A DNA stretch of 64,000 nt from the NCBI GenBank assembly GCA_963665295.1, contig OY762209.1:3744001-3808000 (forward strand), read 5' to 3'. The notes under the pieces are model-generated. The model saw nothing but the letters and a program-made list of their open reading frames with translations, was not told the DNA's origin and ran no database searches. Positions 11,260 to 30,499 of the stretch are shown one piece after another. How positions within the stretch are numbered: the stretch's first letter is position 1; each line of letters opens with the position of its first letter. The DNA comes from Syntrophorhabdaceae bacterium. GTDB lineage: Bacteria; Desulfobacterota; Syntrophorhabdia; Syntrophorhabdales; Syntrophorhabdaceae. The position numbers were made by a program, and so were the translations under genes.

Positions 11260-11269
11260 GGGGGCTACC

Positions 11270-11650
11270 ATGCAAGTTGAAATCTTAGGCAATGGACCTT
11301 TGGCCGAGTACTCAGTAAACGGAACCACCGTGAAGATCGGCGGTGAGGGCGGAGTTGAAATTGACTGCGCTGCATTGCAGTCGGATGCGGCGACCACCAT
11401 CGATATTTGTCGGGATGGAATCGGCAACCTGGTAAGAGGGGTAGGAGACGGAGTGTCCTATGTGGCGTCCCTCATCATTCCTCCGCAGGAAAAAAGCGAA
11501 CAGTTGAAGTACGAGAACGGCAATCCGGTTGTGGATGATGATGGCAAGCAGGTCTATGAGGTGGTCATTGCGCCCCTGAACATGGATAAAGTTCGGCTGT
11601 CGCTGTGGCCCTTCATAAATCCCGAACCGGTATCGCAGGAAAGACTGTAA
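11270..11650 (+). CDS. Tail fibre-associated protein typically found upstream of Mtd-like adhesins
   Basis: IDICRD, YVASLIIP, PLNMDKVRLSLWP motifs; position. Confidence 0.55.
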   Translation: MQVEILGNGPLAEYSVNGTTVKIGGEGGVEIDCAALQSDAATTIDICRDGIGNLVRGVGDGVSYVASLIIPPQEKSEQLKYENGNPVVDDDGKQVYEVVIAPLNMDKVRLSLWPFINPEPVSQERL

Positions 11651-11678
11651 TATCAAAATTTGAAGGAGGTTTTAAGAC

Positions 11679-12695: not shown

Positions 12696-12715
12696 GTGAA
12701 GGTCCGTTAATCTGC

Positions 12716-12737
12716 GGGGTGGGTTATCACCCACCCC
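12716..12737. promoter_or_regulatory. Perfect 9-bp stem / 4-nt loop hairpin (DGR target hairpin, or terminator)
   Basis: GGGGTGGGT-TATC-ACCCACCCC, 20 nt after the Mtd-like stop. Confidence 0.7.
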
Positions 12738-12886
12738 TTTAAGCTGTGATAGGGGAGAATGACGAGGAATCTGATTGTCTATGAGAAAGAACTTTCGAAA
12801 TGAGCAAAGCGGCTGAAGGACAGGACAATCTATGGCAGGTTCTGGCCAGAGCGGTATTCACGAGGACATAAGGAAGGAGGTGGACC

Positions 12887-13480
12887 ATGATTCATATCGA
12901 TTTTGACAAATTCAACAAAGTGGGGTTGAAGCCGATTCTGGAAAAGTTCGAGAAGGAGGGTTTGCCGGTTGCCGGCGTGGAGGCCGATAACAAGGCGAAG
13001 CGCGAATCCGGATTTCAGGTAAAATCAGCAACCATCAACTTCGAGAGTGGGCAAAAACTTCTTGTGAAAACGAAAGCTGGCGGTTCAATTTTCCAGGTCA
13101 AGTTGAACAATAAAGTCTTGGCCATCAAGAACGTTGACGACCTCGACAAGGCTATCCAGGAAGTTATCGATTATGCCAAGGAAAATGAGAAGAACTATCA
13201 GAAACAGAGGGAAAAGCAACTTGCCCGGCAGAAAGTGAACGTTCCCAAGATTACGCCTGCCAACGCCTCGGTAGCAGAGCAGATCACACAGTACCAAGCG
13301 ACTCTTGACGAAACGAGGGCTGCCGACGAGGACCTGAGCACCCAAGTGACAGACGTTGAGAATACCAATGCCGAGAAAGGCAGTACTGTAAGTGTCCTCG
13401 AAAACGAACTGAACGGGTTGGTGGCCGCGGGAGAGGCCCTTCAAAATGAATATGACCAACTGAAGGAGGTGGCAGCATGA
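12887..13480 (+). CDS. hdf: Hdf-like protein (DarA N-terminal homolog), virion antirestriction component
   Basis: IDFD....GLKP, KAKRESGFQVK...FESGQ...GSIFQVKLN motifs plus coiled coil; immediately upstream of darA as in P1. Confidence 0.7.
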   Translation: MIHIDFDKFNKVGLKPILEKFEKEGLPVAGVEADNKAKRESGFQVKSATINFESGQKLLVKTKAGGSIFQVKLNNKVLAIKNVDDLDKAIQEVIDYAKENEKNYQKQREKQLARQKVNVPKITPANASVAEQITQYQATLDETRAADEDLSTQVTDVENTNAEKGSTVSVLENELNGLVAAGEALQNEYDQLKEVAA

Positions 13481-15450
13481 ATCCGCTGACGGAGGGAAAG
13501 AAGATTACGCTGGGATATGACTATTTCGCTAAAGGCTTCACCGCCCCCCAGCTATTGGAGGCATATTACAGGCTGATTGCTGACAAGGAGCAGGCGCGTT
13601 TACTCTTTGAGACAGCCTCCATTGACCAAGTGGATGAGGTCTACAACCCCGGAGATGCCTATGACGAGAATGACCGGATGACGACCAAGGAAATGGTGAT
13701 GGAGGCTGTCTCGGTCCAAAAGTTCGCCCGAACGGATACCAAAATGGCGGCACTCGTACGTGTCTTCAATGCTTATCTGAAGGACAAGAATATTGAAGCC
13801 CAGGTGCCCATCATCGGTACACCAAGGAAGTCAGGCCTCTTCGCAACTGTGACTGTGCAGATTCCATTCAGCGACGGCCAAGTGGTGAGTATCATATTCC
13901 ACAGTCCGGACAACAATAAGATGAAGATCACGGCTGATGATGAAATCATTGCTTTCCGTTGGCTCCTGAACAAGAGGGACATCACTCACGTCGTTTCCCC
14001 GGAGAACGATGCCGAAGTCAGTTTGCAGGAAATCGGCAAACGAACCGCTCAATTGGTTGAAAAGAACAGTGCTCGCTTCCAGGCCATGCAAAAGGGTCTG
14101 ATTGAGCAGAAGAAGAATCTCGAAGAGATTAAAACACAGGCCGAAGAAGCAGTGAGACAGCACGATGAACTCATGGGCAAGCTCAAGGAAGGCCAGGGTG
14201 TCTTGGAGACGATAGATGCAAAGATTGCCAACCTGAAAGACCGGATAGTCAAGCAGAAAGCGTTTAACGATGATCTACAAACGAAGATCGACGCGCTGAA
14301 GGCAAAGCGGGCCGGGAATGATGGGAAAGCGGTAGGCGGGGATACGCCGAAGACGGAGGCAGAGATAAAGGCCGAGCACGAACGGGCTGCCTACGAAGAG
14401 AAACGTTCGGCGCTGGGAAGCGAGCTTACGGGTCGCGGGTTTATCGACAACGGCATGGGATGCGTATGGGATAAGGAAGGTTTCGGATATGCCCAGGCCA
14501 GTGGTGTGGATGGATACGGTATTACGGTCGGGCTTGCTGATGGAAGCAAGAAGACCTTCTCCTCGGCCACCCTCGCGGGATTCGACAAACAGGCCTCCAA
14601 CGCTCTCGCCTGGATCGACAAGAACCTTAAAGGGGTAGCGACTCCCGAGATCACGATTGACCCCGCTCTTTCTTCCATGGATGCGACTGCTGGTTTTGCT
14701 GAGTTTGTCGCGAAACAGGACGAGGGACACAATGAGGGTTACAGCCCAAAAGAAAGCGTCTTGAATATCGACGCCGTTGCAAAGAGTGAGGGTCTGGAAG
14801 CCCAATGGTCGGAAGGGGAGGATGACGGGATGCCAATTGCGGTTGGTACTTTCACTATATCGAATGGCAATCAGATCGGCGGGACCCAGATCAGCCCGGA
14901 CGGAAAGGCCGTCTTTCTTCTGAACGGCGAGCGGTACCGAGGTAGTTACTACCTGGCAACCGCCGATGGTGAGACCCAGGATGCGGCCGTGAAAGAAATC
15001 GCCGGAATCATCAAGGCGAAAGCCGAGAAGGACGAAAGGAGCAATCAGGCAGATGAAACGAATCGCCTTATCGAAGTAGGGAAAGGGGTAGTACCGGGTG
15101 TCCGTCTGCAGGACGCAGAAGAAGCAGGAAGATTGTGGGAAATGAAGGGTCGCGGCGAGTTGACCCAAGAGGAATGGGATAAGTACGTTGCCGATCTCCA
15201 GGCATCCAATAAGGTGGCAGCACCTGAGCCTCAGTCTAAGAGCTCCACGGAGACCGATGGCCCAGCAGCCATAAGCGTGCTCAACGATATCCTGGCAGGG
15301 AAGTACGACGACGATTCTACGAGGTTGGGCGAGGCCCTTGATCAGGCAGCTTCCGAACTGGAAAGGGACGGAAAAGCCGAGGCGTATGATGCGTTGCTTA
15401 ACCAGTGCGCCGATTACTTGACATCCATTCTGAAGAAGGAGGCAGCCTAA
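13477..15450 (+). CDS. darA: DarA-like defence-against-restriction protein
   Basis: IPFSDGQVVSIIFHSP...FRWLLNKRDITHVVSPE...LVEKNSARF (DarA N region) and C-terminal LDQAASELE...YDALLNQCADYLTSIL (DarA C region). Confidence 0.8.
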   Translation: MNPLTEGKKITLGYDYFAKGFTAPQLLEAYYRLIADKEQARLLFETASIDQVDEVYNPGDAYDENDRMTTKEMVMEAVSVQKFARTDTKMAALVRVFNAYLKDKNIEAQVPIIGTPRKSGLFATVTVQIPFSDGQVVSIIFHSPDNNKMKITADDEIIAFRWLLNKRDITHVVSPENDAEVSLQEIGKRTAQLVEKNSARFQAMQKGLIEQKKNLEEIKTQAEEAVRQHDELMGKLKEGQGVLETIDAKIANLKDRIVKQKAFNDDLQTKIDALKAKRAGNDGKAVGGDTPKTEAEIKAEHERAAYEEKRSALGSELTGRGFIDNGMGCVWDKEGFGYAQASGVDGYGITVGLADGSKKTFSSATLAGFDKQASNALAWIDKNLKGVATPEITIDPALSSMDATAGFAEFVAKQDEGHNEGYSPKESVLNIDAVAKSEGLEAQWSEGEDDGMPIAVGTFTISNGNQIGGTQISPDGKAVFLLNGERYRGSYYLATADGETQDAAVKEIAGIIKAKAEKDERSNQADETNRLIEVGKGVVPGVRLQDAEEAGRLWEMKGRGELTQEEWDKYVADLQASNKVAAPEPQSKSSTETDGPAAISVLNDILAGKYDDDSTRLGEALDQAASELERDGKAEAYDALLNQCADYLTSILKKEAA

Positions 15451-15451
15451 C

Positions 15452-16912
15452 ATGCGACTCTCATTCTCTGAAAAAAGGGCACTTCAAAAGACCATTATGA
15501 CAAACCTCGCCAGCCTCCAAGGAAGTGATTTGTCCTTCCAGGACAAAAGACGGTTCCAGAAGGAAATCCAGGACGCCTTTGCCAAGCTCAAGGAGAAACT
15601 GGACATCGTTGATACCGGCGAACCACAGATGGGGCCTGCAACGATGGACGACGTCAATAATGTCATGCCTTTATTGCAACACTTTATCGGTGCATCCCAG
15701 TTAGCCGCGATGGGAGATGGCGTGCGGGGTGAGGAGGGACAATTCTTCAAAGACAAGTTTATCGAAATTGCCAGAACCATTGACGCCATGCCGAAGACCT
15801 ACGGTCAGGACGGCAAAGGTGACGATGCGATGGTGTACCTCCACTATTTCAAGGGTGGGTCCGATTGGTATATCACGGAAAAAGATCAAGAGACGGAGCA
15901 AGCCCAGGCGTTCGGTTATGCAATTCTGAATGGCGACAAGCAGAACGCCGAATTGGGGTATATCAGCATTGAGGAGTTGACAAAGCTCGGCGTCGAGCTT
16001 GATCTGTATTGGAGTCCCAAAACGCTCGGAGAGATCAAAGGCACCGCGCCCGCGCAGGGAAAAGCCTCCGGGAACGAAAATCAGAGACTATCTGACCTGA
16101 TTGCCGGCAAATACAATAACGAGCCACCGGAGGGGTTCCTGAAGATCTTGAAGGAGATCATAGAGGAAATCAACGACATTGAGCCTGTAAAGCCGCCCAC
16201 CATCACCTACATCGAGACGAACCAGGACAAGATCAATTCGATCATGGAAAGCGCCCTGGAAGAGGTCTTTGGGAGACTGTGGGAGAAGACGAGTGGATTT
16301 CCTCCTCGACCAATAGAAACATTGTCTTCGCCACAACCGGCCAGTGATGCCGTAAGGATCAAGAATCAGGACGGCGACTATGGGCCGCCGAGGAAGATCA
16401 GCATTGACATCGATGACGATTTCTATGGCCCGACCGCGTTTCGCGCGGTGATCAGAGCCATTGAAGAGGCCCGGGCGGGAGACACGATTGAAATCAAGGT
16501 GAATTCGAACGGGGGAGATACCCAGTCGGCACAGGCCATTTATGTGGCCTTGTTGAAGACGCTGGCGAAGACGAAAGCGATCATCATCAACGCCTATTCC
16601 GCGGGAAGCATCGTCGCAATGGCCTGCGATGAGATAGAGCCGACGCCATTCTGCAGCATGATGGTCCATAATGCTTCCACATTCAGCGGGGGTAAACTCG
16701 GGGACCTGGCTGGTAAGGCTACATTCTTGAATGACTATTTTGGTGAGTGGTATCAGCAGCTTTACGCCGGATTCCTCTCTGATGAGGAATTGAAGGACGT
16801 TATCAAGGGTCAGGATTTCTGGCTGAAAGAACCTCAGATAAGGGAACGCCTGAAGAACTGGAAACCGATCCGTCAGCGGTTACAGGAAAACGGAACGATC
16901 AAGGCTGCCTGA
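15452..16912 (+). CDS. DdrA-like protein with inserted DUF2958-like domain and C-terminal ClpP/S14-like protease domain
   Basis: Position after darA. MPKTYGQDGKG...LHYF..GSDWYITE...AELGYISIEEL (DUF2958-like). VNSNGG...AYSAGS...MMVHN...QDFWL (ClpP-type Ser/His/Asp). Confidence 0.7.
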   Translation: MRLSFSEKRALQKTIMTNLASLQGSDLSFQDKRRFQKEIQDAFAKLKEKLDIVDTGEPQMGPATMDDVNNVMPLLQHFIGASQLAAMGDGVRGEEGQFFKDKFIEIARTIDAMPKTYGQDGKGDDAMVYLHYFKGGSDWYITEKDQETEQAQAFGYAILNGDKQNAELGYISIEELTKLGVELDLYWSPKTLGEIKGTAPAQGKASGNENQRLSDLIAGKYNNEPPEGFLKILKEIIEEINDIEPVKPPTITYIETNQDKINSIMESALEEVFGRLWEKTSGFPPRPIETLSSPQPASDAVRIKNQDGDYGPPRKISIDIDDDFYGPTAFRAVIRAIEEARAGDTIEIKVNSNGGDTQSAQAIYVALLKTLAKTKAIIINAYSAGSIVAMACDEIEPTPFCSMMVHNASTFSGGKLGDLAGKATFLNDYFGEWYQQLYAGFLSDEELKDVIKGQDFWLKEPQIRERLKNWKPIRQRLQENGTIKAA

Positions 16913-16913
16913 A

Positions 16914-19022
16914 ATGCCAACTCCGCTTGTCAAAAAGCTTGCCGAGGAAAATGGCATCGACATTCAGGAAGCCGAGAAGTGGTGGGATAAGGCAATGAAG
17001 ATTGTCGAGGAACAGGCCGGTTTGTCCGAGGATGATGGAGAAGACTACTGGAAGTATGTGGTCGGGGTTTTCAAGAAGTCCATGGGCGCCGGCGAGGATG
17101 ACAGCATTTCGGAAAGCTCCGGTGGCCGCCCTGGGAAAAAGGATAGGTTAAAAGTGGTATACCCCCAACGAGTCCGAGAAGCGAGGTCGTTCTCGGAGAT
17201 CCTGCAAATCTTCTCCATGCTGTTTCCGTACGCCGTGGATTCGCATTCATGGGATGCAGAATACGAGGCGGCAAAGAAATTCAGGGTTCTTTTCGAAGGG
17301 TTTCAACAGGAATCCGATGTTGAACGTAAATATGAGATTGCCTGCGAGATGGAGGAGTTCTCCCGGTCATTTCGTTATAAAGGCGGTTTTCTGACCATGG
17401 CTGGCGATGGTGCGGAGTCGAGAGAGGTATTGAAATTTGTGGCGCCCTCATCGATTGGCGCATTTCTTCTGGAAAGAAACTGTCAGGAGGGTGAAAACGC
17501 CATCGCAGAGATCATTCCCGATTACAAGGAGAAGTTGAGCGCCCAACGAGACCTTCAGGCAAGAATGGACCAGATAGAAAGAGATTATGGCCTTAATCTA
17601 TCCGACACGTTACTCAGGAAGAAGGAAGAGGTTGATTCCGCGAAGCGAGAGTGTGGCGTCCTTGGTCTGCAGACCAGAGCGGATGCGTTAAAAAATGAAC
17701 AATGGGAGTGGACAAGAAACCACACAAGGACTATGCCGCTTCGTAGTGAAGCAGAGGCTTATGCAAGGTGGCAGCGGGAGCTTGATGACTATAACGGAGA
17801 AAAAGGTAAGCGATTTCAAGAACTTATGGACAAGTCCTATGAACTCGAAAATATTCATGTAAAACCCGTGCGTGACAGATGGAACGCTGAGATCGCACAG
17901 GCCGAAAACGAGAGAAACAGAGAGGTTTCCCTCTTACAAGAGGCCGAGAGGGAGCTTGAGGACGCAGTCGGTGGAGCCCTTATCTTCAAGATACTGGAGT
18001 CATCTCCTGTAACCAAAGAAGATGCAGGCCAATGGGTAAAGAACCAGAGGGTGAGTAAGTCGGCAGTTATCCGACTGAAGAAGCAGGGATATGAAGAAAG
18101 TGCCCTTAGGGATCACATGGCCGAATTCTATAGACTGACAGGCGGAAGGATCGGAAAGGCTTTTATCGAAACGAAGGGAGACAAGAGGGCGAAGGCTGCC
18201 TTTTGGGATGGAACTATCTATATTGACGGAAGTTTTACGAAGCGGACCCTCTTTCACGAGATGGGGCACCTACTGGAAAGAGAGCCAAAATTAGAGGCCA
18301 TGGCAGAGACATTCCGTGACGGGAGGGCAAAGAAGGAAAAGGGAACGAAGACTCTGAAAAGCATCACGAACAATCCGGCGTACCGGTCTGATGAGGTCGC
18401 CTACACCGATGACTTTTTTGATCCTTATGTTGGAAAAGTCTATAGGAACAATTGCACTGAAGTGCTTTCCATGGGGACGCAAATGTTTTCTTCTCCTCAA
18501 GATGCCACGTTTCTGGCAAGTCGGGATCCACAGATGTTCAATATGATGCTGGGCTTCATGCTCTCCAAGCCCACTGCCCGCGAGATCGCCAAAAAAGAGA
18601 TGATTCAGGAAGTGGCTTCGGACATGGTGAGCGAACGAGACCGGCTTGATAAGTTCTACCAAACCCTGACGAAAAGGGCCAAGGATGGTTCGTTTTGGGA
18701 AGGGAAAGGCTCTGGATTGATTTCCAGGCTTGAAGGTTACGGCAACGGAAAGGGAAGCGGGAAGACAATGGTTCTTTACTACTATCCCGGAGATCTGCAG
18801 CAGGGACCGGGTGAGTATGTGCAGTCGAGCTTTTTCAAAAACAGACAGGCAGCAAAAAACTTTGCCTATCTCTACCTTCTTTATGTCCAGAAGGGAATCA
18901 TAACCAGCAAGGATGAAGCCTCCCGTCTCAGCTATGCCATAGCTAACTGTGTGCTGAGAAAGACAATACCTCCAAAACTGACAATTGACGATCTTCCAAC
19001 GTTTATCGAGGAGTTGAAATGA
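16914..19022 (+). CDS. DdrB-like protein with zincin metallopeptidase domain
   Basis: TLFHEMGHLLE (HExxH at 18255-18269) followed by DDFFDPYVGKVY...TEVLSMG; position matches P1 ddrB. Confidence 0.7.
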   Translation: MPTPLVKKLAEENGIDIQEAEKWWDKAMKIVEEQAGLSEDDGEDYWKYVVGVFKKSMGAGEDDSISESSGGRPGKKDRLKVVYPQRVREARSFSEILQIFSMLFPYAVDSHSWDAEYEAAKKFRVLFEGFQQESDVERKYEIACEMEEFSRSFRYKGGFLTMAGDGAESREVLKFVAPSSIGAFLLERNCQEGENAIAEIIPDYKEKLSAQRDLQARMDQIERDYGLNLSDTLLRKKEEVDSAKRECGVLGLQTRADALKNEQWEWTRNHTRTMPLRSEAEAYARWQRELDDYNGEKGKRFQELMDKSYELENIHVKPVRDRWNAEIAQAENERNREVSLLQEAERELEDAVGGALIFKILESSPVTKEDAGQWVKNQRVSKSAVIRLKKQGYEESALRDHMAEFYRLTGGRIGKAFIETKGDKRAKAAFWDGTIYIDGSFTKRTLFHEMGHLLEREPKLEAMAETFRDGRAKKEKGTKTLKSITNNPAYRSDEVAYTDDFFDPYVGKVYRNNCTEVLSMGTQMFSSPQDATFLASRDPQMFNMMLGFMLSKPTAREIAKKEMIQEVASDMVSERDRLDKFYQTLTKRAKDGSFWEGKGSGLISRLEGYGNGKGSGKTMVLYYYPGDLQQGPGEYVQSSFFKNRQAAKNFAYLYLLYVQKGIITSKDEASRLSYAIANCVLRKTIPPKLTIDDLPTFIEELK

Positions 19023-22000
19023 TTGAAGAGATGCAGTATCCGGTAACGCCCTATGCTTTCGACATCGAAACGTCTATGGGCGATCTGCGCATTGAGATGG
19101 AGTCCACGGAGTTTGATGCTCCTTCAAAATTCGAGATCAAGACCTATGGCGGGAATGCGGCTCCGGAATCGGTTTTGAGAAGATACTTTCATGAATTCGG
19201 GTTCGGGATGAGGGGCCATAGAATAGAGATGGAAGGTGATCGAGCCTTTCCATCCGATTTCTACCATGTTTTGACCATGAGCCGCACCTATCTTCAAGAG
19301 GGGAAGCAAAGCAGCATTCTCGACTTCCAAATTATGGGGTTTGTTCCGCGTAAAGGGTATGTAGACTTATTTGTCGGTCCAGAAGGTGATGGTGAAGACG
19401 ATAACATTTTGGAGAGCGCCGAGAGCGTTCTCATGACTCTCACGGGCAAGGAATTGGGCGAGAATATTGATTCAGAGAGCGCCGTCGAGGTAGCCAAGAA
19501 CTATTACAGAGCCAAAATGCAGGGGAAAATAGTAACACGGCCAAGCGTGGGCGATGTACGCTTTTCCGGCAAGGGATGGAAGAAATTCAGGCGAGGCATA
19601 ACAACGGACATCAAGAAGGCCAAACTACTGCCTGCGGCCCCTGTCGTCGTTCGACTCGGAAAGCACTCCGTCTCGGAACTCTACAAGAGCCGTCCCGATA
19701 ATATTGTCCGATTCCATTTTTTTGATGGGAAGATTGAACTCGAAGGCCAAGTCCTGCTTGTCGGTGTGACTGTTGGAGAAGACGACAGAGGTTGTCTCTT
19801 TTATAATCTCAATCATGACCCAGATGTTCTCATAGAAAAACGAAAGGCCCCAAGTTTGCCCAGGTTAGAAGCCCGGGGGTTGGAGCCCTCCATCGGGGAG
19901 CATGATGCTCACCGCAATAGAAGTATAGACGCAGAAGACCGTGATGTCAACATTACGGAATCTGCCTCCATCGATAGGGAAGCCAACAAAGCGGCGTCTT
20001 CTCCAAAAAATAGCCTTCCCGAGCCCACGGAGGCCCAAAAAGAAGCCGGGAATTACCGCAAGGGTCATGTGACTATTCGCGGCCTGGACATCGCTATCGA
20101 GAACCCCGCAGGGTCCGAACGGTCCGGTGTCAACCGGGATGGAAAGAAATGGACATCGAAGATGCGTCACCACTATGGCTATTTCAAAGGTACGAGGGGG
20201 CGCGACAAAGATCATCTTGACGTCTTCCTCGGTCCGGATCCCGAGAACGCAGACAAGGTGTTCATCGTAAACCAGACAAGCCAGGCTACGGGTTCTTTCG
20301 ATGAGCACAAGATCATGTGGGGGTTTGAAACTGAAGACGAGGCGCGTGCGGCCTATCTCTCCAATTACGAAGAGGGATGGCAGGGCCTTGGGAGCATCTG
20401 CACCTTGTTCGTTGACGAATTCAAGGACTGGCTGAAGAACGGAGACACTACTATACCGGTCGAAAGGGGGGTGACCGGGTCGTATCACCAAGACCCATCC
20501 TGGGTCGGTGTTGATTTGGACGGCACGCTTGCAAAGTACGACGGCTGGGTAGGAGAGGATCACATCGGTGAGCCCATTCCCCTCATGATGGCTTTCGTAA
20601 AGCGCCTCGTAAGGGAAGGCAAAAGGGTAAAGATATTCACTGCCAGAGCGTCAGACCCTGAGAAGATACCGCCCGTCAAGAAATGGCTTGAAAGGAATGG
20701 CCTGGGAGACCTTGAAGTAACCAACGTCAAGGATCAGAACATGACCATGCTTTATGATGACCGGGCGGCGAAGGTTATAGCCAACACGGGCGTCATCCTC
20801 GAGAAAGCACGCCAAAGCGCGATAATGGAACGCAGTCGAGCAACTTATTTCCGTGGTGCTGTTCAAGGGGCAGTTTCCTTTGACGACATCGAGGATGTTT
20901 TTGCTGCCACGTTTGGCCCTATCGTGGTCAAACGGTTCATATTTGGGGAGATATCGGAACTGGAAAATCAGATTAAGGCTATGCGTGAGAAGCTCGCTCA
21001 GGTGATGCTGGACAATGACGGTACCGGGATCGTCCAGGGAGAAAAGACGACCGCCTATCTGAACGACAACTCGCCCATTGATCTTCAGTATGCCGTGATC
21101 GGGGCGGATCGCCTTGTTACGTCTCATACCGACGAACTGTCTCTAAATCGGGACTTCTCGCAGGACCTCCAACCCCGGGATCGCGCCCGGGAGGGCATGA
21201 GGTTACAAGTCGAGCAGATGGCGGGTAAGCTGAATCCAGAACGCCTTGGAGAATCTACAAGCGTTTCAACGGGAGCACCCATCATTGGTCAGGACCTCAC
21301 GGTCGAATCAGGCAATGGACGGACCATTGCCATACGAAAAGCCTACACGGCGGGGGAGAAGGGTCAGGAATACAAACAATGGCTCGTTACGAATGCCGAT
21401 CAGTTCGGGATTTCCGGTAAAGCCATTGAGAGTATGGAAAGACCGGTATTGGTAAGGATTCGTCTTACGGAAATTGATCGTTCCGAATTTGCACGGAAAG
21501 CCAATGAAGACGAAATCGCACAGATGGCGCCTTCGGAACTGGCCAAGGCGGATGCTGCAAGGCTGACCAATGACGACATAGCCTTTTTTCAGCCTTCCGA
21601 TGATGGCAATATTGCGGCAACCACGAACCGAGCCTTTATCGCCAAGTTCGTAGAGAAGATGGGAGTTACCGCATCCACCGGATACATGACGAAAGACGGA
21701 AGATACACAAAGCAGCTCATTGACCGGGTGCAGGCCGCTATTTTTCAGAAAGCATACCAAGATGAAGACCTGCTGATTCTCATGGCGGAAGAAGCCGACC
21801 CGAAGATAAAGAACATTTTGAGTGCAATGACTGTCGCCGCGGGCGAATTCTCCGGGGCAAAGGCCGCTGACCAGGATCTCATGGGAATCGATATCCCACA
21901 TCACATCATAGAAGCTGCAAAACTGATAAAGAAGGCAAGGCAAGATGGAGATGCTATCGAGATGGTATTAGCCCAGGGTGGCTTTTTCGAAGCCATATCC

Positions 22001-22723
22001 GAAGATACGAAGCATATCACCCGATTCATCGACAGCAATATCCGATCCGCAAAACGCATGGGCGCCGTCTTTAAGGAGGCGGCGAGCATGCTCAAAAGGC
22101 GTCTGATAGACGAGAAGACACCTAAGTTGATCGCCATGGAAGAGCCATTGCCCACCCCGACCCAGATCCTCACCCGGGCCATAGAAAAGGAAAAGGCGGC
22201 AAGAGAAGTCGGCGAAAACCTTTTTGAGGCGGCCGGAGAATTTGACTGGCGGGAGGCTATAGAAGCCGCGGCAACTTTTGAGGATATTCAGGCCGTTTTC
22301 GAGAGTAAGTTTCCAGAAGTATTCAAAACCGGCAGGGGAAAGCAAACATTCCCTAAGCCTAAAAGAAATATGATGATCAATACCGACAATGGAGAGACAA
22401 CAATAAATCACCTCTTGTCACGCATGGCGCGTGCAAGAGGTGACCAGAAAAGAGACCTGTACTTGTCTACCTACGGCGACGATAGGCGCGCTCTCATAGA
22501 GGCGGCAATTCTGAAATTGCCGGCAGGGGAATACACACTGTCAATAGAAGGCAGGGCAGCGCCTTCACTTCAACGGACAATCATAGACAAATATGGGGTG
22601 TGGGTTGGGGTTGATGTCACTGAACCTCTTGTTCGGGGGATGGCGGTCAAGTATCCAGAAGCAATTCAAGCAACATTCACTCTTGGGTTACAGGAAATAA
22701 GAATAATTACGCGGAGGAGATAA
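19019..22723 (+). CDS. Polyvalent protein: LPD3/PBECR-like RNase, inorganic pyrophosphatase-like, HAD phosphatase and ddrB-ParB-like domains
   Basis: PTEAQKEAGNYRKGH...IENPAGSERSG...HYGY...DHLDVF...FDEHKIM (InPase-like); WVGVDLDGTL...IFTAR...LYDDRA (HAD); LQPRDR...LNPERL...GAPII...VESGNGR (ParB-like); GDVRFSGKGWKK...RFHFF...VGVTVGED...FYNL (LPD3-like, weaker). Confidence 0.8.
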   Translation: MIEEMQYPVTPYAFDIETSMGDLRIEMESTEFDAPSKFEIKTYGGNAAPESVLRRYFHEFGFGMRGHRIEMEGDRAFPSDFYHVLTMSRTYLQEGKQSSILDFQIMGFVPRKGYVDLFVGPEGDGEDDNILESAESVLMTLTGKELGENIDSESAVEVAKNYYRAKMQGKIVTRPSVGDVRFSGKGWKKFRRGITTDIKKAKLLPAAPVVVRLGKHSVSELYKSRPDNIVRFHFFDGKIELEGQVLLVGVTVGEDDRGCLFYNLNHDPDVLIEKRKAPSLPRLEARGLEPSIGEHDAHRNRSIDAEDRDVNITESASIDREANKAASSPKNSLPEPTEAQKEAGNYRKGHVTIRGLDIAIENPAGSERSGVNRDGKKWTSKMRHHYGYFKGTRGRDKDHLDVFLGPDPENADKVFIVNQTSQATGSFDEHKIMWGFETEDEARAAYLSNYEEGWQGLGSICTLFVDEFKDWLKNGDTTIPVERGVTGSYHQDPSWVGVDLDGTLAKYDGWVGEDHIGEPIPLMMAFVKRLVREGKRVKIFTARASDPEKIPPVKKWLERNGLGDLEVTNVKDQNMTMLYDDRAAKVIANTGVILEKARQSAIMERSRATYFRGAVQGAVSFDDIEDVFAATFGPIVVKRFIFGEISELENQIKAMREKLAQVMLDNDGTGIVQGEKTTAYLNDNSPIDLQYAVIGADRLVTSHTDELSLNRDFSQDLQPRDRAREGMRLQVEQMAGKLNPERLGESTSVSTGAPIIGQDLTVESGNGRTIAIRKAYTAGEKGQEYKQWLVTNADQFGISGKAIESMERPVLVRIRLTEIDRSEFARKANEDEIAQMAPSELAKADAARLTNDDIAFFQPSDDGNIAATTNRAFIAKFVEKMGVTASTGYMTKDGRYTKQLIDRVQAAIFQKAYQDEDLLILMAEEADPKIKNILSAMTVAAGEFSGAKAADQDLMGIDIPHHIIEAAKLIKKARQDGDAIEMVLAQGGFFEAISEDTKHITRFIDSNIRSAKRMGAVFKEAASMLKRRLIDEKTPKLIAMEEPLPTPTQILTRAIEKEKAAREVGENLFEAAGEFDWREAIEAAATFEDIQAVFESKFPEVFKTGRGKQTFPKPKRNMMINTDNGETTINHLLSRMARARGDQKRDLYLSTYGDDRRALIEAAILKLPAGEYTLSIEGRAAPSLQRTIIDKYGVWVGVDVTEPLVRGMAVKYPEAIQATFTLGLQEIRIITRRR

Positions 22724-22726
22724 TAA

Positions 22727-25700
22727 ATGATTCTTGAAAGGGCTGTCCCGGATTGGAAATCGAAAGTTCAAGCGGCAAGCAGTTTCTTTGACATAGCGAC
22801 GGTTATCAAGACCCTTTTCGATCTGGAAACGGTCCCGGGGCAAGAGCCTCCGAAAGACCCAAACGACTACAAAGATGAAAATTCTGATTACGGTCTGAAG
22901 GTCAAGGGGATAAAAGCCCGCGAACGTCTCAACGAACAGGCCCGGGAGATCATCGGCCGCGTAAAAACCCCTGACGATCTGACAGACGCAGACCGGGAAA
23001 TACTGAAACAATATTCAGGAAGGGGGGGTCTTACCGAAAACTCCCAGTTTGAATACTACACGCCGACTCACGTGGCCGAGGGACTATGGGACGGCATGAT
23101 GACCAACGGATTCGCAAACGGGAATGTTCTGGATCCCTGCGTAGGTGCCGGCGTCTTTTCGGCGACTAAACCAAAAGGGGCAATCATCACCGGGGCGGAC
23201 ATTGATCCGGTCGGTTCAAGAGTCGCCCAGCTTCTCAATCCGGAAGACCTGATCCAAAGCCAGTCGTTTGAAAGAACCGTCATGGAGACCCCCGACGATA
23301 CCTTTGACGCCGTAGTCGGTAATGTTCCCTTCGGCAACGCGAGAGGAGCGAGCGCCCATGACGATCCCGATTACAAAAATGAAAAGCGCATCGAGCGCTA
23401 TTTCATTCTCAGAGCCCTGGACAAAGTGAAGCCAGGGGGGCTCTGTTGCCTGATCGTGCCTATCAATATCGTTGGCGCCAAGGGTGGACAGTGGGAGAAG
23501 TTCCGAATCGCATGTAGCAAAAAGGCTGAATTCCTCGGGGCCCATAAACTGCCATCCAAAACCTTTGCAGCTCAGGGGACCGACACCGTTGTGGACATCG
23601 TCGCCTTCAGAAAGCATCCGAAGGACTTCCTGGACAGGATAGATAACATTCCTTTCGATACCATGAAGGCCTCAAGGGTCATATGGGACGAATTCATTAG
23701 CGGACAATACTGGGTGGGCGAGGGGCGTCAATTCATCATGGGGAAGTGGGTTCCGAAAATTGAAGGAGATCGATGGAGCCGGGAAGTAGTGGATGGCGAT
23801 ATTGACAACGCGGGGCTAAAGGCGAAGCTCGCGCAGCGCTTTGAGTCCCGTATCAACTGGGACCTCCTTGAAGTGGCGGAGCCCATCATCAGAAACTATG
23901 TGGAGGGCGACCGGAAGATCATCAATGGCACCGAATATGAGTTGAGCAGTGGCCAGTGGTCCCGTGTAGTCAAGATTAATGATACCTCATTGACGATTGA
24001 TAGAGGCCGGTACGGCGCTGGGTCCTTGGACGAACTGAAAGCGGTACTGTCATCGTCTAAAGGGGCTTTGGCCCTGTCCGCGAAACAACTCTTTGCCGTC
24101 TTCAAGGCTTTCCCGGAATTCCTGACCCCCCTACAAAAAGCCTCCATCGAATTCGCCATGAGCCAACCGAAAGAAGAGTATCAGGAGCAACTTTTTCGGG
24201 GTTCGATCATCGGGGGCATGATAGCCCGTTATCAGAATACTGTCAACGATGGGACCGCCGAGGATGCGGACCTGCTTGAGCTTCAGGAGCTTGTTTCCAA
24301 GGAGATCGACACCTATGGACATCCCAAAAACAACAGGGGATTGTTGCTGACCGGTGAATCATCAAAGATGTTCGGCCTCTTCAAGAATGCCGTCGATGAA
24401 AAGGGTCAGTTCTCGGATCTTCTTGCAGGGACCATGGATGGGTCGGGGCGAACCTTGGAGTACGATTCGACCAACTTGCAGGCCATTGTGGAGCATCTCT
24501 TCGTCCGGGAAGGGATTCAGTCCATAGAGTTGGAGGACATCCAAAAACTCTACACGGGGAAACGAGAAATCAAGACACTGTCCGACCTTGTCGATGATGA
24601 TGCGTTGGCTATTACGCCCGATGGCTTTATCATGCCGATGGGACGCTATGCAGTGGGCGACATCTATCCTAAGGTCCAGGCCATGAGCGACGCCCTAGCG
24701 GTCGAAACGGATGAACGGGTCAAGGGCAAATACATGGAGCAGATAGAAGAGATTATGCGCCGGCGAAAGACAACGAAGCCGGAAGACATCTCTTTTGATA
24801 TGCGCCAAAAATGGTTCAGCAAGAAATATGTGATCGATTTTCTCAGGGAAAACGGCTATTCGCACCTCACCTACGGCACTATGGAAGAGGTCGTCAAAGA
24901 GAACCCCTATGACGGGAAGACTTTTACTGCACGTGCGCTGAAAGAGGATTACGATAATCCATTCGGCAGGTTCTCTGGAATTGACGATAGTAAGGGAGGC
25001 TTCCCGAAGCAGTTCCTCAAATACCTCAATGGCGAGAATGTTACGTCTTCCGGAGAAGACGCCCAGGAAAGAATCAAGGAGTACAAGGATCGATGCCGCA
25101 TTTTTGAAGAACAGTTCAACGTATGGATGCAACAGCACATCGAAATCAACGAGATAACCGAGCGATATAACCGGAAATTCAACGGATTCACCCCTTTTGA
25201 CTATGAGGATGCTGATCTTGGCCTGAAAGATGTCTCTCCTCAGGTAAGGCTTCATGGCTATCAGAATGCAGGCGTACGGCGATTATCTGAAGAGGGTCGG
25301 GGTATTCTGGCACACGATGTAGGACTCGGGAAGACTTTCACCGCTCTCGGTCTCTATGCCTATAACAAAAAGATGGGCCGCTCGAAGAAGACTTGCATCG
25401 TGGTGCCGAAGTCCGTACTTGGGAACTGGTATCACGAATCAAAGAAGTTCTTGGGAAACTGCGACGATGTTCTGTTTGTCGGATTTGAGCCGAAATTGGG
25501 CGACGGCGGACAGATCGAGCAGGAGGTTGTGAAGGATGAGAAAGGAAATCCGAAGGTAAACATACTCACTGGACAGCTTGAATATCAGGACATCCTCATA
25601 GAGAGAAACGGCAAAGAAGACGTGTGGGGGGCCATGTGGAGGATTCCGCAGTCAAACTATTCTCTCATCGTCATGACAAAGGAAAAATTTGGCATGATTC

Positions 25701-28700
25701 CCATGAGACCGGACAGCAAAAAGGCCTATGCGGATAAGATGGTTAAAAGATCGCTTATCAGTGAGAAAATGCACGCAGAGGCAACGAGCGACAGCGCCGC
25801 GACCAACGGTATGTCGGCGGAGAAGAGGGTCTCCTATAGTCAGGATGTTGAAAAGGCGAGGCTCGAACAGCAATTCTCCGATGAGGGAACGGCGAAGAAG
25901 GGGGAACTTCCTTACTTCGAGGATATGGGATTTACCGACGTGATCATAGACGAGTGTCATGAGTTCAAAAACAACATGCTTGGTGGGGAACATTATCAGG
26001 ATGTGGCATATCTCCCCACTGCTCCACCCGCGAAACGTGCCCTCGACATGACCATGAAGATGGCATACCTGCGTGATGCCAATAATGGCCGAGGGGCATA
26101 TATGCTCTCCGCTACCCCGGTAACGAACAGTCCGTTCGAGATATTCAACATGCTTTCCTATGTGTGCCCACTCGAAGAATTCGAGAGATACGGTATCTAT
26201 ACGCCCGATGATTTTATTCGCGTATTCGGGGAGATCATGAGCGTTGATAAGATGATGGTTGACGGGGGACTCAAGACAAAAGACGGGTTGAAGGGGTTTC
26301 AAAACCTCGACGGGCTTCGGAGTATGTTTCACAAGTATGTAAACATGAAAGGTGCCGATGATTTCCCAGATCAGATCAAGCTGCCTCCCCATGAGGAAGT
26401 AAGCCTCGACATCGAATTGACCGAGAAACAGCAAGAGGTTTACGCAATCTTGCGCGAGCGCGCGAAAGACGCTGCGAAGCCGCCACAAAAAGGAGAGAAG
26501 AAGGAAAGTATGTTCTCCGTCATCCGGGATATGGACCGGGTTACGACTGATATGGACCTATATAACAAAACGATGACCTTTGTCTTCCGAGAAGCAGACA
26601 GAGCCAATGTGGACGGCTTAGTAAAGAACCTCCCCCAGTCCATCAAGGTTAAGCGCGTCCTCGATGACGATGAGATGGATGCTCTCGGCCTTGATCCAGA
26701 GATGAACAAGGGTAAGGCCCAGGAAGTCACTGTCAAGCTCAAGACGGAATCACGAACGGAAAACAGCAGTTATATTGTCGTCTTTCCGAAAGAGTATGAG
26801 AATATCGTTATTGACCGCATCCCCGGAAACGGCATTGCAATGGAGAATGTATCGCATCCCCTAATGCCAAAGTATGCGAAGCTCATTGAGAATCTGCGCG
26901 CTGACCTTGAAACCGATGGAAAGCAGCTCATCTTTACCGAAGAGAAATCGCAGCATCAGAAGATTTTACGCCTCATAGTCCATCATATCCCGACTATCTC
27001 CAAACTGATTGGAATTATCAACGCGGATGAAGCAAAGGGAGAGGATATTCAGAAAATATCAGATGAATACAATTCCGGCAGTCTGAAATTCGTGATCTGC
27101 AATAAGAAGGCCGAGGTCGGAGTAAACCTTCAGAAGGGCACGACCGCAATCCACCACTTGACCCTTCCCTGGACCCCGGCGAGCATTCAACAGCGAAACG
27201 GCAGAGGAGTGCGCCAGGGCAATACGGCGGCCATGATCCATATCTACTATTACTGCGGTAAAGGGTCTTTCGACGCCTACCGCCTCGAGATACTGAAGGC
27301 AAAGTCGAACTGGATGAGGGACCTCTTCGACGGTACTGATGCAACGGCGGGGAATGCAAACGCCTTGAGCCAAGATGATATGATGGACATGCTCGAAGCC
27401 GATCCGGAGGCGGCGAAGAAAAGGAGGCTTGAGCGATTGGCGGCGAAGCAAGCCGAGGAAGCTGAGAAGGAAAAAAGGCGCCTTGCGAACCAATTGCAGG
27501 TGTTATCTCAAGCAAGTAGCGATCTCGCTGGTCTCGACGTTGCCAAAAAGGCAGAACAGGAGAAACTGACCAAAAGGGTGATGGACCTTGAGCCGGAGAT
27601 AAAGAGACTTCACGAGCGATGGTCCGCGGCTGAGGGAGACGATAAAGCGAGAATCGGTCGTCAGATAATGGAGAAAGAACAATCTCTGAAAAACGTGAAA
27701 AATAAGCTTTCCTCTCTTGACCAGACGTTCGAGCAGAGGCGGATCAAGCTTACATCCTCAGTAAAACAGGCGTCGGGACTCTTGCGCCAGAAGGCGAAAA
27801 AAGGCCAACTCCCCTTTGACGAAGCATTAATCGACCGGCCAGAAAGCGCCTGTGTGACACTGTCCGGCAAGGTAGTAGCGGTCGGGGATTGTTACGAGTA
27901 TCAAGGCGATTATTTCCACGGTATCATCAAAGTCGCGGAGGTTGATCCCATTGCCCGAGCCTTCAAATATGAGGAAATAGTGGGTAGGATTAACAATCAG
28001 GATATGGACCGTGCTCTCGATAAGAAGGAATGGGGATGGTATAAGGCCGAGAGCCTTGCAAAATTGGAACAAAAAGGCCTCACAAAAGTCTCGTATTCAG
28101 AGAAAGAACTCATGTTGAAGAAAATGTTAACTGAATCACATGATTATAAGACTCTAGTGGAAGGCAGAATTGACAAGGATATGTTCCTTACCTACCGGAA
28201 GGAGATCAACTGGGATAAACGCGCCATGTACGTTGTGAGGAGTCAAGACGGAACGACAACGATCACCGATGGCTACTCGACCAAGGACCTTGCCAATGCC
28301 ATTATCTATCCTGACGCGAAGAGCGACGGTTTTAGAAAGGCAGTGTGCGAGGGCTATTTACAACAAAAAAGGAGAGGGGGGTCCGTTTACTACGTCTCCG
28401 GCATGATGAGAATGCTCTTTGGTGACAACTATGAAGATGTCGCCATGGAATATGGCAAGACCGCGACAGAAGCCGAGGTAATAGAAGCGTGCGCAAAGGC
28501 ATGGAACGATCAATGGAAAGCAAAACGCCCTTACGGATGTGACAACCTCGACGAACTTGTAAACGCTTTGTTGGACAGAACGGTCAGCCGTGCGACTGTC
28601 CTGAGTGACACACGATCATCCATGAGATACGCAACCAGTGGGCTTGGAGACAACGATGAGCAAATAGAACTCATAGTAAACCAATACTGCCAGGATCTTA

Positions 28701-29089
28701 TGTCCAGCATCGATGCTGCCGTTGCAGCACAAAAGAGCGAAAAGGAACGTGCGGCCAACGAGTCCTTAAAAAACGATCCACGATATAAGGAAGTGCCGCG
28801 GGAAGTCAAGGACGCATTTGACAAGATCGGAATAACGGTCAAAACGAATACTACAAATATGGCTTTGCCGGGATTCAAAAGGCGCCGTGGGGTTGTTTTG
28901 GAGCCCTTTGCACGGTGGTTTTTTCAGGATAGGAATGGAAAGAGTGGTGCGCTCTTCAGAACAAAAGATATTCTGAAAGCGCGTTATGGGGCTCAGTTCT
29001 TTTCGGATGCGGGGGAAGCGTTCAAAGGGGCTTGGTGGCACGTGCCTTCGGCAACGGACTTGAAGGCAATCTATGAACTAATTGCATAA
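22727..29089 (+). CDS. darB: DarB-like N6-adenine methyltransferase / SF2 (SNF2-like) helicase fusion
   Basis: EYYTP, VLDPCVGAG, VGNVPF (MTase); HDVGLGKT, IIDECH, LSATP, QRNGRGVRQGN (helicase); 2120 aa. Confidence 0.9.
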   Translation: MILERAVPDWKSKVQAASSFFDIATVIKTLFDLETVPGQEPPKDPNDYKDENSDYGLKVKGIKARERLNEQAREIIGRVKTPDDLTDADREILKQYSGRGGLTENSQFEYYTPTHVAEGLWDGMMTNGFANGNVLDPCVGAGVFSATKPKGAIITGADIDPVGSRVAQLLNPEDLIQSQSFERTVMETPDDTFDAVVGNVPFGNARGASAHDDPDYKNEKRIERYFILRALDKVKPGGLCCLIVPINIVGAKGGQWEKFRIACSKKAEFLGAHKLPSKTFAAQGTDTVVDIVAFRKHPKDFLDRIDNIPFDTMKASRVIWDEFISGQYWVGEGRQFIMGKWVPKIEGDRWSREVVDGDIDNAGLKAKLAQRFESRINWDLLEVAEPIIRNYVEGDRKIINGTEYELSSGQWSRVVKINDTSLTIDRGRYGAGSLDELKAVLSSSKGALALSAKQLFAVFKAFPEFLTPLQKASIEFAMSQPKEEYQEQLFRGSIIGGMIARYQNTVNDGTAEDADLLELQELVSKEIDTYGHPKNNRGLLLTGESSKMFGLFKNAVDEKGQFSDLLAGTMDGSGRTLEYDSTNLQAIVEHLFVREGIQSIELEDIQKLYTGKREIKTLSDLVDDDALAITPDGFIMPMGRYAVGDIYPKVQAMSDALAVETDERVKGKYMEQIEEIMRRRKTTKPEDISFDMRQKWFSKKYVIDFLRENGYSHLTYGTMEEVVKENPYDGKTFTARALKEDYDNPFGRFSGIDDSKGGFPKQFLKYLNGENVTSSGEDAQERIKEYKDRCRIFEEQFNVWMQQHIEINEITERYNRKFNGFTPFDYEDADLGLKDVSPQVRLHGYQNAGVRRLSEEGRGILAHDVGLGKTFTALGLYAYNKKMGRSKKTCIVVPKSVLGNWYHESKKFLGNCDDVLFVGFEPKLGDGGQIEQEVVKDEKGNPKVNILTGQLEYQDILIERNGKEDVWGAMWRIPQSNYSLIVMTKEKFGMIPMRPDSKKAYADKMVKRSLISEKMHAEATSDSAATNGMSAEKRVSYSQDVEKARLEQQFSDEGTAKKGELPYFEDMGFTDVIIDECHEFKNNMLGGEHYQDVAYLPTAPPAKRALDMTMKMAYLRDANNGRGAYMLSATPVTNSPFEIFNMLSYVCPLEEFERYGIYTPDDFIRVFGEIMSVDKMMVDGGLKTKDGLKGFQNLDGLRSMFHKYVNMKGADDFPDQIKLPPHEEVSLDIELTEKQQEVYAILRERAKDAAKPPQKGEKKESMFSVIRDMDRVTTDMDLYNKTMTFVFREADRANVDGLVKNLPQSIKVKRVLDDDEMDALGLDPEMNKGKAQEVTVKLKTESRTENSSYIVVFPKEYENIVIDRIPGNGIAMENVSHPLMPKYAKLIENLRADLETDGKQLIFTEEKSQHQKILRLIVHHIPTISKLIGIINADEAKGEDIQKISDEYNSGSLKFVICNKKAEVGVNLQKGTTAIHHLTLPWTPASIQQRNGRGVRQGNTAAMIHIYYYCGKGSFDAYRLEILKAKSNWMRDLFDGTDATAGNANALSQDDMMDMLEADPEAAKKRRLERLAAKQAEEAEKEKRRLANQLQVLSQASSDLAGLDVAKKAEQEKLTKRVMDLEPEIKRLHERWSAAEGDDKARIGRQIMEKEQSLKNVKNKLSSLDQTFEQRRIKLTSSVKQASGLLRQKAKKGQLPFDEALIDRPESACVTLSGKVVAVGDCYEYQGDYFHGIIKVAEVDPIARAFKYEEIVGRINNQDMDRALDKKEWGWYKAESLAKLEQKGLTKVSYSEKELMLKKMLTESHDYKTLVEGRIDKDMFLTYRKEINWDKRAMYVVRSQDGTTTITDGYSTKDLANAIIYPDAKSDGFRKAVCEGYLQQKRRGGSVYYVSGMMRMLFGDNYEDVAMEYGKTATEAEVIEACAKAWNDQWKAKRPYGCDNLDELVNALLDRTVSRATVLSDTRSSMRYATSGLGDNDEQIELIVNQYCQDLMSSIDAAVAAQKSEKERAANESLKNDPRYKEVPREVKDAFDKIGITVKTNTTNMALPGFKRRRGVVLEPFARWFFQDRNGKSGALFRTKDILKARYGAQFFSDAGEAFKGAWWHVPSATDLKAIYELIA

Positions 29090-29103: not shown

Positions 29104-29766
29104 ATGCTGAAAACAACTCTGAAGTTTGAAAACTACGGTTCGTCGGGCCTGCACTACATCGGGCATGGTGCTGATTTCGAAGTGCCTGGCCATACGATTG
29201 GCACCGCAGGTATTTCCGTCAATGTTGATCAGGATCAGGCCGCTACAATCACGTCGGAAGTCCGGACGAAAAGGCCGGCCATGGTGGTCACCTCCGTCGA
29301 GACCTTCGATGATGGCGTGATTCCTGCGTATATGCCCTTTCAGAAGGACAACTATGCAGGGGCCTCCGCCCCTGACGAGGACAACGACGTGACGGAAGGA
29401 TACTCCGTGGGTTCGGTCTGGATCGACACGACCGCGAATCCCCATGAGATCTACAGATGCGTCGACGCCAGTGAGGGGGCAGCGATATGGCTGAACACAT
29501 CCTTGGAACTGAGCGAGATTCTGAATGCCGATATGAATCTGGCATTGGGAAAGGTATACAAGATCAACGGCGTGAAAGTTGTCGGGGCCCCTGGCGCCCA
29601 CGTTGCCGATGCAAGCGCTGTTGTCGGAACGGCAACGAATGGAGGCTATGGATTCGTGTCTGCTGATGAAATGAATGCTTTCATCAGCGGTGTCAATGCC
29701 GTAAAAGATGCCGCCAATGCGGTTGTCGCCAGACTTGAAGGACATGGGCTTATTGCCTCTGCCTAA
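29104..29766 (+). CDS. Probable head fibre/virion decoration protein
   Basis: APDEDNDVTEGYSVGSVWIDTT...YRCVDASEGAAIW fibre-type motif and C-terminal NAVVARLEGHGLIA. Confidence 0.5.
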   Translation: MLKTTLKFENYGSSGLHYIGHGADFEVPGHTIGTAGISVNVDQDQAATITSEVRTKRPAMVVTSVETFDDGVIPAYMPFQKDNYAGASAPDEDNDVTEGYSVGSVWIDTTANPHEIYRCVDASEGAAIWLNTSLELSEILNADMNLALGKVYKINGVKVVGAPGAHVADASAVVGTATNGGYGFVSADEMNAFISGVNAVKDAANAVVARLEGHGLIASA

Positions 29767-29917: not shown

Positions 29918-30322
29918 ATGAATATCTACAAGCCCTCTGAAAATGATTTGCAACCCCTATTGGATCAGGCCACGGCCAATCAGCCAGTTGATCAGTGGAT
30001 AGACAAATTCCTGGCAAATCTGAAGGCCATCCTTCTCAAGAGCCCGCTTCGCTACCGAGCTTATGGACCATACTGGTGGCTGCTGAAAAAAGCCTATATC
30101 GATAAGGAGGATTTCTCCTTTGGAGGCTTTCTTGACCGGGAATGGCTCTCAACCATGGACTACGGTAAGCCAGAATTGAATATTGTGGCCGCCTTCCTCT
30201 ATGAGGATATGAGAACGGCCAAGAACATGATCGATGATCCGTTCCACGTTATGGAGACGGTAGACGGTGGAGATGCGATTGAATTCGGCTCCAACGATCC
30301 AGAGATGGAGATGAAGATATAG
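29918..30322 (+). CDS. ulx: Ulx-like protein (DarB incorporation factor in P1)
   Basis: LLKSPLRYRAYGPYW..LKK...FG..LDR...Y.KPEL..VAA.LY closely follows P1 Ulx (recalled); near darB. Confidence 0.75.
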   Translation: MNIYKPSENDLQPLLDQATANQPVDQWIDKFLANLKAILLKSPLRYRAYGPYWWLLKKAYIDKEDFSFGGFLDREWLSTMDYGKPELNIVAAFLYEDMRTAKNMIDDPFHVMETVDGGDAIEFGSNDPEMEMKI

Positions 30323-30419
30323 CCCTTGAAGGGGGGCATGTATTTAACGATTTGACAAGCTGCACGGGCAGTTTTTGGCGCGGGGCCGGGAGACTGGCCC
30401 CCTATTCCCGCATCGTTGC

Positions 30420-30458
30420 CGCAATCCTTCGTTTTTCTATCGCAATCCTTCGTTTTTC
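30420..30458. repeat. 18-bp direct repeat with 21-bp period upstream of the portal gene
   Basis: cgcaatccttcgtttttc at 30420-30437 and 30441-30458. Confidence 0.9.
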
Positions 30459-30499
30459 CCCTATTTTCATTTGCCTGCCTATCTTCTTTAATCTTAGTT

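Follow-up and report, generated by a model that had tools for sequence, protein, structure and literature searches.

The stretch of DNA analysed here (64,000 nucleotides, referred to below as the window) originates from a Syntrophorhabdaceae bacterium (assembly GCA_963665295.1, contig OY762209.1, positions 3744001-3808000), and the late region of a P1-like prophage makes up its first 35 kb. Cargo genes of this region encode four copies of a 22-residue motif that, on the evidence of profile comparisons, is homologous to a proven packaging signal, i.e., that of the phage P1 protein DarB, and that is uncatalogued as a family. The motif is best explained, with good probability, as a portable head-loading tag on P1-like cargo, which would bind the C-terminal domain of DdrA (DdrA-C), with DdrA in turn hung on capsid-bound DarA. 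A preliminary description of this DNA had proposed a reusable packaging tag, and the idea is supported by the match of deep sequence profiles to P1 DarB residues 4-25 and DdrB and by the confinement of the tag to cargo genes. Every copy can quite probably act as an address.

Four copies of a conserved motif

All four 22-residue sequences of the preliminary description translate in frame and lie exactly where it had placed them (Table 1). The number of copies that do not lie at a gene start is three, rather than the two described as internal, since copy 1 is preceded by an N-terminal domain of ~60 residues. The sequence pattern also holds, except that an aromatic residue at position 1 is not a general rule, but is seen in this clade only; the consensus is hydrophobic-x3-[IV]-x2-A-x-[ST]-F-x-[DE]-[IL]-x2-[VLI]-[FI]-x2-L-F. 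Profiles built from three of the copies rank the fourth 10th, 5th, 5th and 5th among 1,519,240 sequence windows of the host's 4,561 open reading frames (ORFs), where the ranks count the training copies and one further genomic copy. The copies are old: they share 28-38 of 66 nucleotides and 5-9 of 22 residues, which rules out a recent DNA duplication as their origin. Internal start codons at copies 2 and 3 were also considered, and these are not conserved in the flanking sequence of relatives. The motif is real, and it is also selected: core positions are identical in orthologous copies more often than the other positions (18/18 vs 12/26, 30/36 vs 34/52, 19/27 vs 10/39 and 37/45 vs 47/65).

For 87 of 120 DarB orthologues (2.5 expected), the best match to a profile made from the three non-DarB copies lies 55-100 residues ahead of the methylase motif, and after profile iteration 97 of the 119 orthologues scored have the tag. 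In the host, only six sequence windows reach at least 18 bits with the iterated profile, i.e., those of the four copies, of an orphan copy outside the prophage and of the tail of a Mu-type portal protein.

The orphan copy heads a 143-residue ORF (L016:10245-10676, reverse strand; genome ~1,890,240-1,890,680) with a phrog_22413 domain, which lies at a great distance from the prophage, next to a transposase and tRNA-Ser(CGA); it is probably what remains of a cargo gene from another phage. The small helical domain ahead of copy 1 (16914-17090) has no clear family match and also heads different cargo in L018, L031, L033, L089, L105, L114 and P0015, where it often precedes a site motif and tag; it could be a further address.

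Relation to the packaging signal of P1 DarB

In P1, residues 1-30 of DarB (N30) alone bring TetR-mCherry into heads, while the first nine residues (N9) are insufficient; deletion of residues 1-4 is tolerated, residues 6-10 are needed, deletions of 16-30 and 21-30 are not tolerated, and deletion of 11-30 is tolerated according to the legend of Fig. 3 (PMC9024508, here and below as far as accessible). The tag falls inside N30, at residues 4-25, and its extent fits five of these observations and conflicts with one, the tolerated deletion of 11-30. A common Dar targeting signal was suspected in that study (Gonzales 2022), but BLAST gave no consensus among Dar N-termini (PMC9024508). According to the profiles, the tag family supplies this shared signal that was missed by BLAST.

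The homology to P1 DarB 1-30 is detected through profiles and not by pairwise comparison. A profile from the four copies, as envisaged in the preliminary description, fails to find the N-terminus of P1 DarB, while deeper profiles from DarB orthologues match P1 DarB 4-25 as well as P1 and D6 DdrB. A deep window-clade profile with no P1-clade sequence inside places the N-terminal 22 residues first in 79 and among the top three in 107 of 120 P1-clade DarB proteins, which are related rather than independent. A second profile, grown within the P1 clade from a seed whose register was picked by eye, agrees with the first on the register in 115 of 117 proteins. The profile-profile score is 17.7, compared with -3.8 ± 4.1 for column shuffles, and was reached in none of 20,000 shuffles (hhalign probability 94%). 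The P1-clade profile ranks the window copies 2nd, 4th, 123rd and 132nd in the host. When the 13 proteins nearest to P1 were held out, the top four sequence windows of the P1 proteome were those beginning at DarB 4 and DdrB 455, 558 and 3; with a combined profile, DdrB 615 joins the top five of 27,170. In the D6 proteome, the top two matches are the DarB and DdrB N-termini.

Distribution of the tag

At a cut-off of at least 18 bits, 185 matches (106 distinct) are found in 2,421 ORFs of 121 related loci; many of these loci are redundant, and some overlap the training set. All but one of the distinct matches (105/106) are located within genes of the cargo block, 45 of these 105 being internal, and none of the 106 is found in Hdf, DarA, DdrA, Ulx, the portal or Pro. 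Domains of the carriers are ART-PolyVal, PBECR1/3, LPD1/3, MuF_C, InPase, ParB and methylase. A search of 1.84 billion representative sequences gave 44 matches, of which 26, among them the top eight, are cargo proteins (25 identified by BLAST and one, a fragment, by eye); four of these are training sequences.

In the copy of Pfam that was searched, which is without PF28554 and PF28555, one of 79 tag members has a match (GA, E 0.002). Nothing below E 0.28 is found in PHROGs for the four tag regions, no Pfam, PHROGs or NCBIfam entry covers the tag, and in the PDB, where the best E is 0.1, no solved chain covers it. A helix-turn-helix shape is suggested by the sequence pattern and a resemblance to GA modules only; in a monomer model of P0021 residues 1-168, the tag is one long helix at a predicted local distance difference test score (pLDDT) of ~49, the tag rows of the alignment being misplaced onto a hairpin.

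Two look-alikes were set aside. The portal tail mentioned above belongs to a second, Mu-like prophage (L017:7260-8813) and is the best non-family match to the tag profile (18.7 bits); it was treated as generic, there being no Mu portal among the 44 library matches. A segment of the DarA propeptide resembles the tag and does not score with the tag profile.

A protease-site motif upstream of the tag

An [IL]-x-E motif ahead of each copy had been pointed out previously, and it is indeed present, as ISE-S, ILE-K and IME-R, LFE-A, and ILE-R before copies 1 to 4, respectively. The motif matches the site of head-protease cleavage in P1 gp23, MLE120-S121, and the capsid protein of the present prophage has VLE-A at the corresponding position. 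With a pattern fixed post hoc, after the sequences had been seen, 13 instances of the site motif are counted in the head and cargo proteins (~7,000 residues), where the host rate predicts 1.2. It is found upstream of 47 of 105 tags, compared with 240 of 9,045 control windows (2.7%), and the spacing from site to tag is 4-9 residues in 41 of the 47. The association is mainly a property of window-type tags (44/81); only 3 of 24 P1-type tags, all three internal, have the motif, and among P1-type N-terminal tags it is found in 0/21. The electron cryomicroscopy (cryo-EM) model of P1 DarA begins at residue 70 (PMC12810830, from its accessible portion), which is fitted by the sequence LLE68-A.

A conserved site motif also follows DdrA-C (16241-16290) and is itself followed by a helix, ALEEVFGRLW, that resembles the second half of the tag, also in several close relatives; this half-tag after the IME-S site does not score with the tag profile.

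Internal copies at the joints of fused genes

Internal copies had been proposed to mark former gene starts or independently tagged modules, and they are found where genes that are separate in other phages are joined. P1 DdrB has the layout tag-ParB-site-tag-tag-tag-peptidase. D6 DdrB terminates at the very site where P1 DdrB continues, and in the window the peptidase half is a tagged gene of its own. Copy 2 occupies the position of the N-terminal tag of P1 and D6 DdrB, copy 3 that of P1 DdrB LFE441-S plus tag 455, and copy 4 is the positional orthologue of P1 DarB residues 4-25. Elsewhere DarB is fused behind other modules with an internal tag, as in L025 (a protein of 3,886 residues), P0052, P0053, P0071, P0074 and P0097. 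From the split of DdrB among P1, D6 and the window together with these DarB fusions, it follows that internal copies sit at fusion joints. Probably, tagged genes were fused with their tags retained internally, and the prohead protease would then cut the polyproteins into modules within the head.

In P0021 and P0087, DdrA, tag and DarB are found in one chain; both are single-member clusters and possibly artefacts.

DdrA as the candidate receptor

The preliminary description named DarA, Hdf and Ulx as partners for modelling; the likeliest partner, as suggested by the co-occurrence and covariation described below, is instead DdrA, and the identification of DdrA-C as the receptor is somewhat favoured. 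In DdrA, a loose linker joins a hairpin to a small helical domain, as seen in a model of the compact L006 protein (pLDDT 71, predicted template modelling score 0.38), which has no match in the PDB. The ESM Atlas gave no usable match. In 51 loci with a visible cargo block, labelled partly by eye, the tag and DdrA-C are both present in 38, while in 10 neither is found within the fetched flank and DarB begins with a DdrA-type hairpin; 2 loci have neither signal. To account for the ten hairpin-type loci, a quick tree needs four changes, of which no fewer than two are forced. Because loci without DdrA-C lack the tag and start DarB with the hairpin, a docking chain from DarA through DdrA to the tag is suggested.

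In phages without ddrA, the DdrA hairpin is an alternative N-terminal piece on DarB or other cargo, with hairpin-type DarB starts in L035, L138-L141, L143, L145, L176 and L202. It is a probable second tag, without detectable homology to the first (hhalign 1%).

The C-terminal domain of DarA (DarA-Cter) and DdrA-C look homologous (hhalign 77%), and the charge of DarA-Cter is opposite to that of the hairpin (rho -0.82, over 42 non-independent pairs). In a mirror test, i.e., a comparison of distance correlations over 25 loci, the tag tracks DdrA-C best in 446 of 500 bootstraps and the N-terminal part of DdrA (DdrA-N) tracks DarA-Cter best in 482. In P1, DarA and Hdf line the capsid as 55 pairs. 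The loading order DarA/Hdf, DdrA, then DdrB, DarB and Ulx (PMC12810830, accessible part) and the ~45 DarB per 55 DarA-Hdf pairs fit the proposal of DdrA as an adaptor.

Taken together, the N-terminal hairpin of DdrA would dock on the C-terminal domain of capsid-bound DarA, and DdrA-C would hold the 22-residue tag of the cargo. A more general reading, which we regard as possible rather than probable, is that of plug-and-socket loading through two paralogous sockets, where DarA-Cter holds the hairpin and DdrA-C the tag. Acquisition of a tag, whether terminal or internal (at the start, in the middle or at the end), would thereby turn any enzyme into virion cargo, freed by the prohead protease, and some lineages would have dropped DdrA and placed the hairpin straight on the cargo.

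A number of observations weigh against the proposed role of the tag and its receptor. The direct match of the window copies to P1 DarB is weak: with the four-copy profile the P1 DarB N-terminus is not among the top 20 P1 matches, and with the deep window-clade profile P1's own DarB scores 4.9 and ranks 2-3 within the P1-like DarB. The tolerated deletion of 11-30 strips most of the motif from P1 DarB (score 29.4 to 10.4). Part of the pattern is generic, as 18 of the 44 library matches are unrelated repeat proteins (e.g., GA modules) in which weak matches add up. Cleavage of P1 DdrB at its single site would give pieces of 48 and 61 kDa, which does not fit the form of 76 kDa that is cited in PMC5512222 (accessible part). 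L077 has a weak tag and no detected DdrA-C, Rb1 is ambiguous, and DdrA-C of L060 was identified solely by eye. The mirror test is a weak one, in that DdrA-C (0.49) and DdrA-N (0.68) are tracked by a control 22-mer of DarB as well. Finally, DdrB is listed as aiding DarB addition (Table 1 of PMC9024508), which is more easily reconciled with binding between cargo proteins than with competition for a single site.

Alternative explanations

A loading tag with another receptor, i.e., Ulx, DarA/Hdf, DdrB or directly the capsid scaffold region, appears rather unlikely. Ulx is listed as aiding DarB localisation, as DdrB is for DarB addition (PMC9024508), in the mirror test Ulx takes second place (partial r 0.49; the best partner in 51 of 500 bootstraps), and the L077 tag lacks a detected DdrA-C. 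However, 9 of the 10 tag-less hairpin loci hold Ulx as a same-strand or nearby match, and Ulx is listed for all ten; DarA and mostly Hdf are likewise present, so that the presence of these proteins does not predict the tag, whereas that of DdrA-C does.

It is quite improbable that the tag is a cargo-cargo or retention module, which after proteolysis would connect the modules with one another or with the inside of the head, or hold them together for ejection, rather than recruit them during assembly. Such a role would agree with the location of most window-clade tags 4-9 residues past a cut-site motif, where the tag would become the new N-terminus in the mature head, with several copies per protein, apparently more than recruitment requires, and with copies at the C-terminal end (L087, L089). 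It does not account for the transport of TetR-mCherry into heads by P1 DarB 1-30 alone (PMC9024508), or for P1-type N-terminal tags, which are without an upstream site (0/21).

A helix recognized by the prohead protease, promoting cleavage nearby, would explain the short, fixed spacing in 41 of 47 cases, but most sites are without a tag (in the capsid protein, the portal, Pro and at two module borders of the ORF at 19019), and 58 of 105 tags lack a site within 22 residues; this explanation is very improbable. Resemblance of unrelated amphipathic helix-turn-helix pieces by chance or convergence is most improbable, and for the window clade largely refuted: GA modules, GAF linkers and the Mu-type portal tail do score 17-26 bits, but most family copies are at 28-43 bits, a score of 18 is attained by only 1 of the 1.52 million host windows outside the family, and the profile without DarB copies finds the N-terminal place in 87 of 120 DarB orthologues against 2.5 expected.

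Organization of the locus

In the window, tail and baseplate genes are followed by hdf, darA, a ddrA-like gene, two cargo ORFs, darB, ulx, the portal gene and a Pro-like protease gene (Table 1), i.e., the Dar antirestriction operon of P1 is represented by hdf, darA, ddrA, a ddrB-like gene, darB and ulx, together with portal and Pro. The capsid gene is located immediately left of the window (30% identity to P1 gp23), and DarB is 41% identical to P1 DarB over query residues 55-491.

Table 1. Features of the prophage late region, with positions in the window
Feature	Position	Strand	Remarks
hdf-like gene	12887..13480	+	phrog_1620, PF18788
darA-like gene	13477..15450	+	acidic C-terminal helical domain ~15235-15447, predicted receptor of DdrA hairpin
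ddrA-like gene	15452..16912	+	N-terminal helical hairpin 15452-15601; phrog_5203 insert
DdrA C-domain	16058-16237	+	predicted tag receptor
IME-SA site in ddrA-like gene	16241-16255	+	followed by ClpP-like domain
Cargo ORF, HExxH metallopeptidase-type	16914..19022	+	resembles C-terminal (metallopeptidase) half of P1 DdrB
Predicted head-protease site, copy 1	17106..17120	+	ISE-SS, 16 residues ahead of copy; VLE-SA in relative L018
Tag copy 1	17160..17225	+	residues 83-104 of metallopeptidase-type ORF
Polyvalent cargo protein	19019..22723	+	LPD3, InPase, HAD-like, ddrB-ParB
Site motifs in polyvalent protein	19406 and 19952	+	module borders without tag
Two predicted head-protease sites, copy 2	20795..20836	+	ILE-KA, IME-RS
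Tag copy 2	20849..20914	+	residues 611-632 of polyvalent protein, ahead of ddrB-ParB module
Predicted head-protease site, copy 3	22220..22234	+	LFE-AA
Tag copy 3	22247..22312	+	residues 1077-1098 of polyvalent protein, directly after ParB module and LFE-A site
darB	22727..29089	+	adenine methyltransferase and SNF2 helicase
Protease-site motif, DarB start (copy 4)	22730..22744	+	ILE-RA
Tag copy 4	22754..22819	+	DarB residues 10-31
ulx-like gene	29918..30322	+	phrog_1629
Portal	30416-32176	+	
P1 Pro-like prohead protease	32188-33213	+	

The ClpP-like protease domain at the end of DdrA (16395-16880) is fused in the same way in several relatives, namely L007, L027, L032, L034, L048, L051, L091 and L105. 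Between darB and ulx, an ORF of 220 residues (29104-29766) has no counterpart at this place in P1, only a partial match to phrog_33012, and no tag. In close relatives, a reverse-transcriptase-like ORF is found just 5' of hdf (L006:53-1078, L007:78-629, L008:150-1217); read by eye, these ORFs resemble those of diversity-generating retroelements. The window has no such ORF ahead of hdf and no repeat at 9900-13500; its tail protein (11679-12695) has an end like that of a typical target of these retroelements.

Comparison with known systems and implications

The tag resembles the capsid-targeting sequence of P1 DarB (PMC9024508) in its place in an orthologous protein, its 22-position pattern and its location in the same Dar operon. 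In contrast to the single N-terminal signal described in the accessible part of that article, it forms a family that is found also in DdrB and other cargo, often internally or in multiple copies. In the window clade, the tag is preceded by the protease-site motif, whereas P1 DarB is without one.

The capsid targeting sequence of phage T4 comprises about ten residues, is known only from N-termini and is removed by the head protease; T4 gp21 cleaves after glutamate. The tag differs from this type in that it comprises 22 residues, is internal in 45 of 105 cases and resides on the downstream side of the cut. The two have in common that they are short, portable addresses of head cargo tied to a head protease (the T4 internal-protein signal is summarised in PMC9024508).

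The carriers are polyvalent proteins (Iyer et al. 2017, PMC5512222), with ddrB-ParB, LPD1/3, InPase, PBECR, ART, MPTase and DarB. The accessible part of that article proposes autoprocessing by MPTase and names no loading tag; the sites found here point to the prohead protease. The P1 Dar structure (Zheng et al. 2026, PMC12810830) does not resolve DarA 383-639 or any further Dar protein beyond the DarA-Hdf pairs, such as DdrA, DdrB and DarB, and, as far as the article is accessible, no docking route is given; the chain from DarA-Cter through DdrA to the tag is new here, and predicted. No description of a shared Dar tag or a DdrA adaptor was found in the literature, subscription journals and theses being outside the scope of the search.

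Since exact P1 residues (DarB 4-25; DdrB 3, 455, 558 and 615) and a candidate receptor are named, the questions of the Dar signal and of docking are testable in P1. A loading tag of this kind would account for the recruitment and reshuffling of polyvalent effector proteins, and proteins could be brought into P1 heads by means of a defined handle. If the plug-and-socket reading is true, two orthogonal, position-independent loading codes would be at hand in a laboratory phage.

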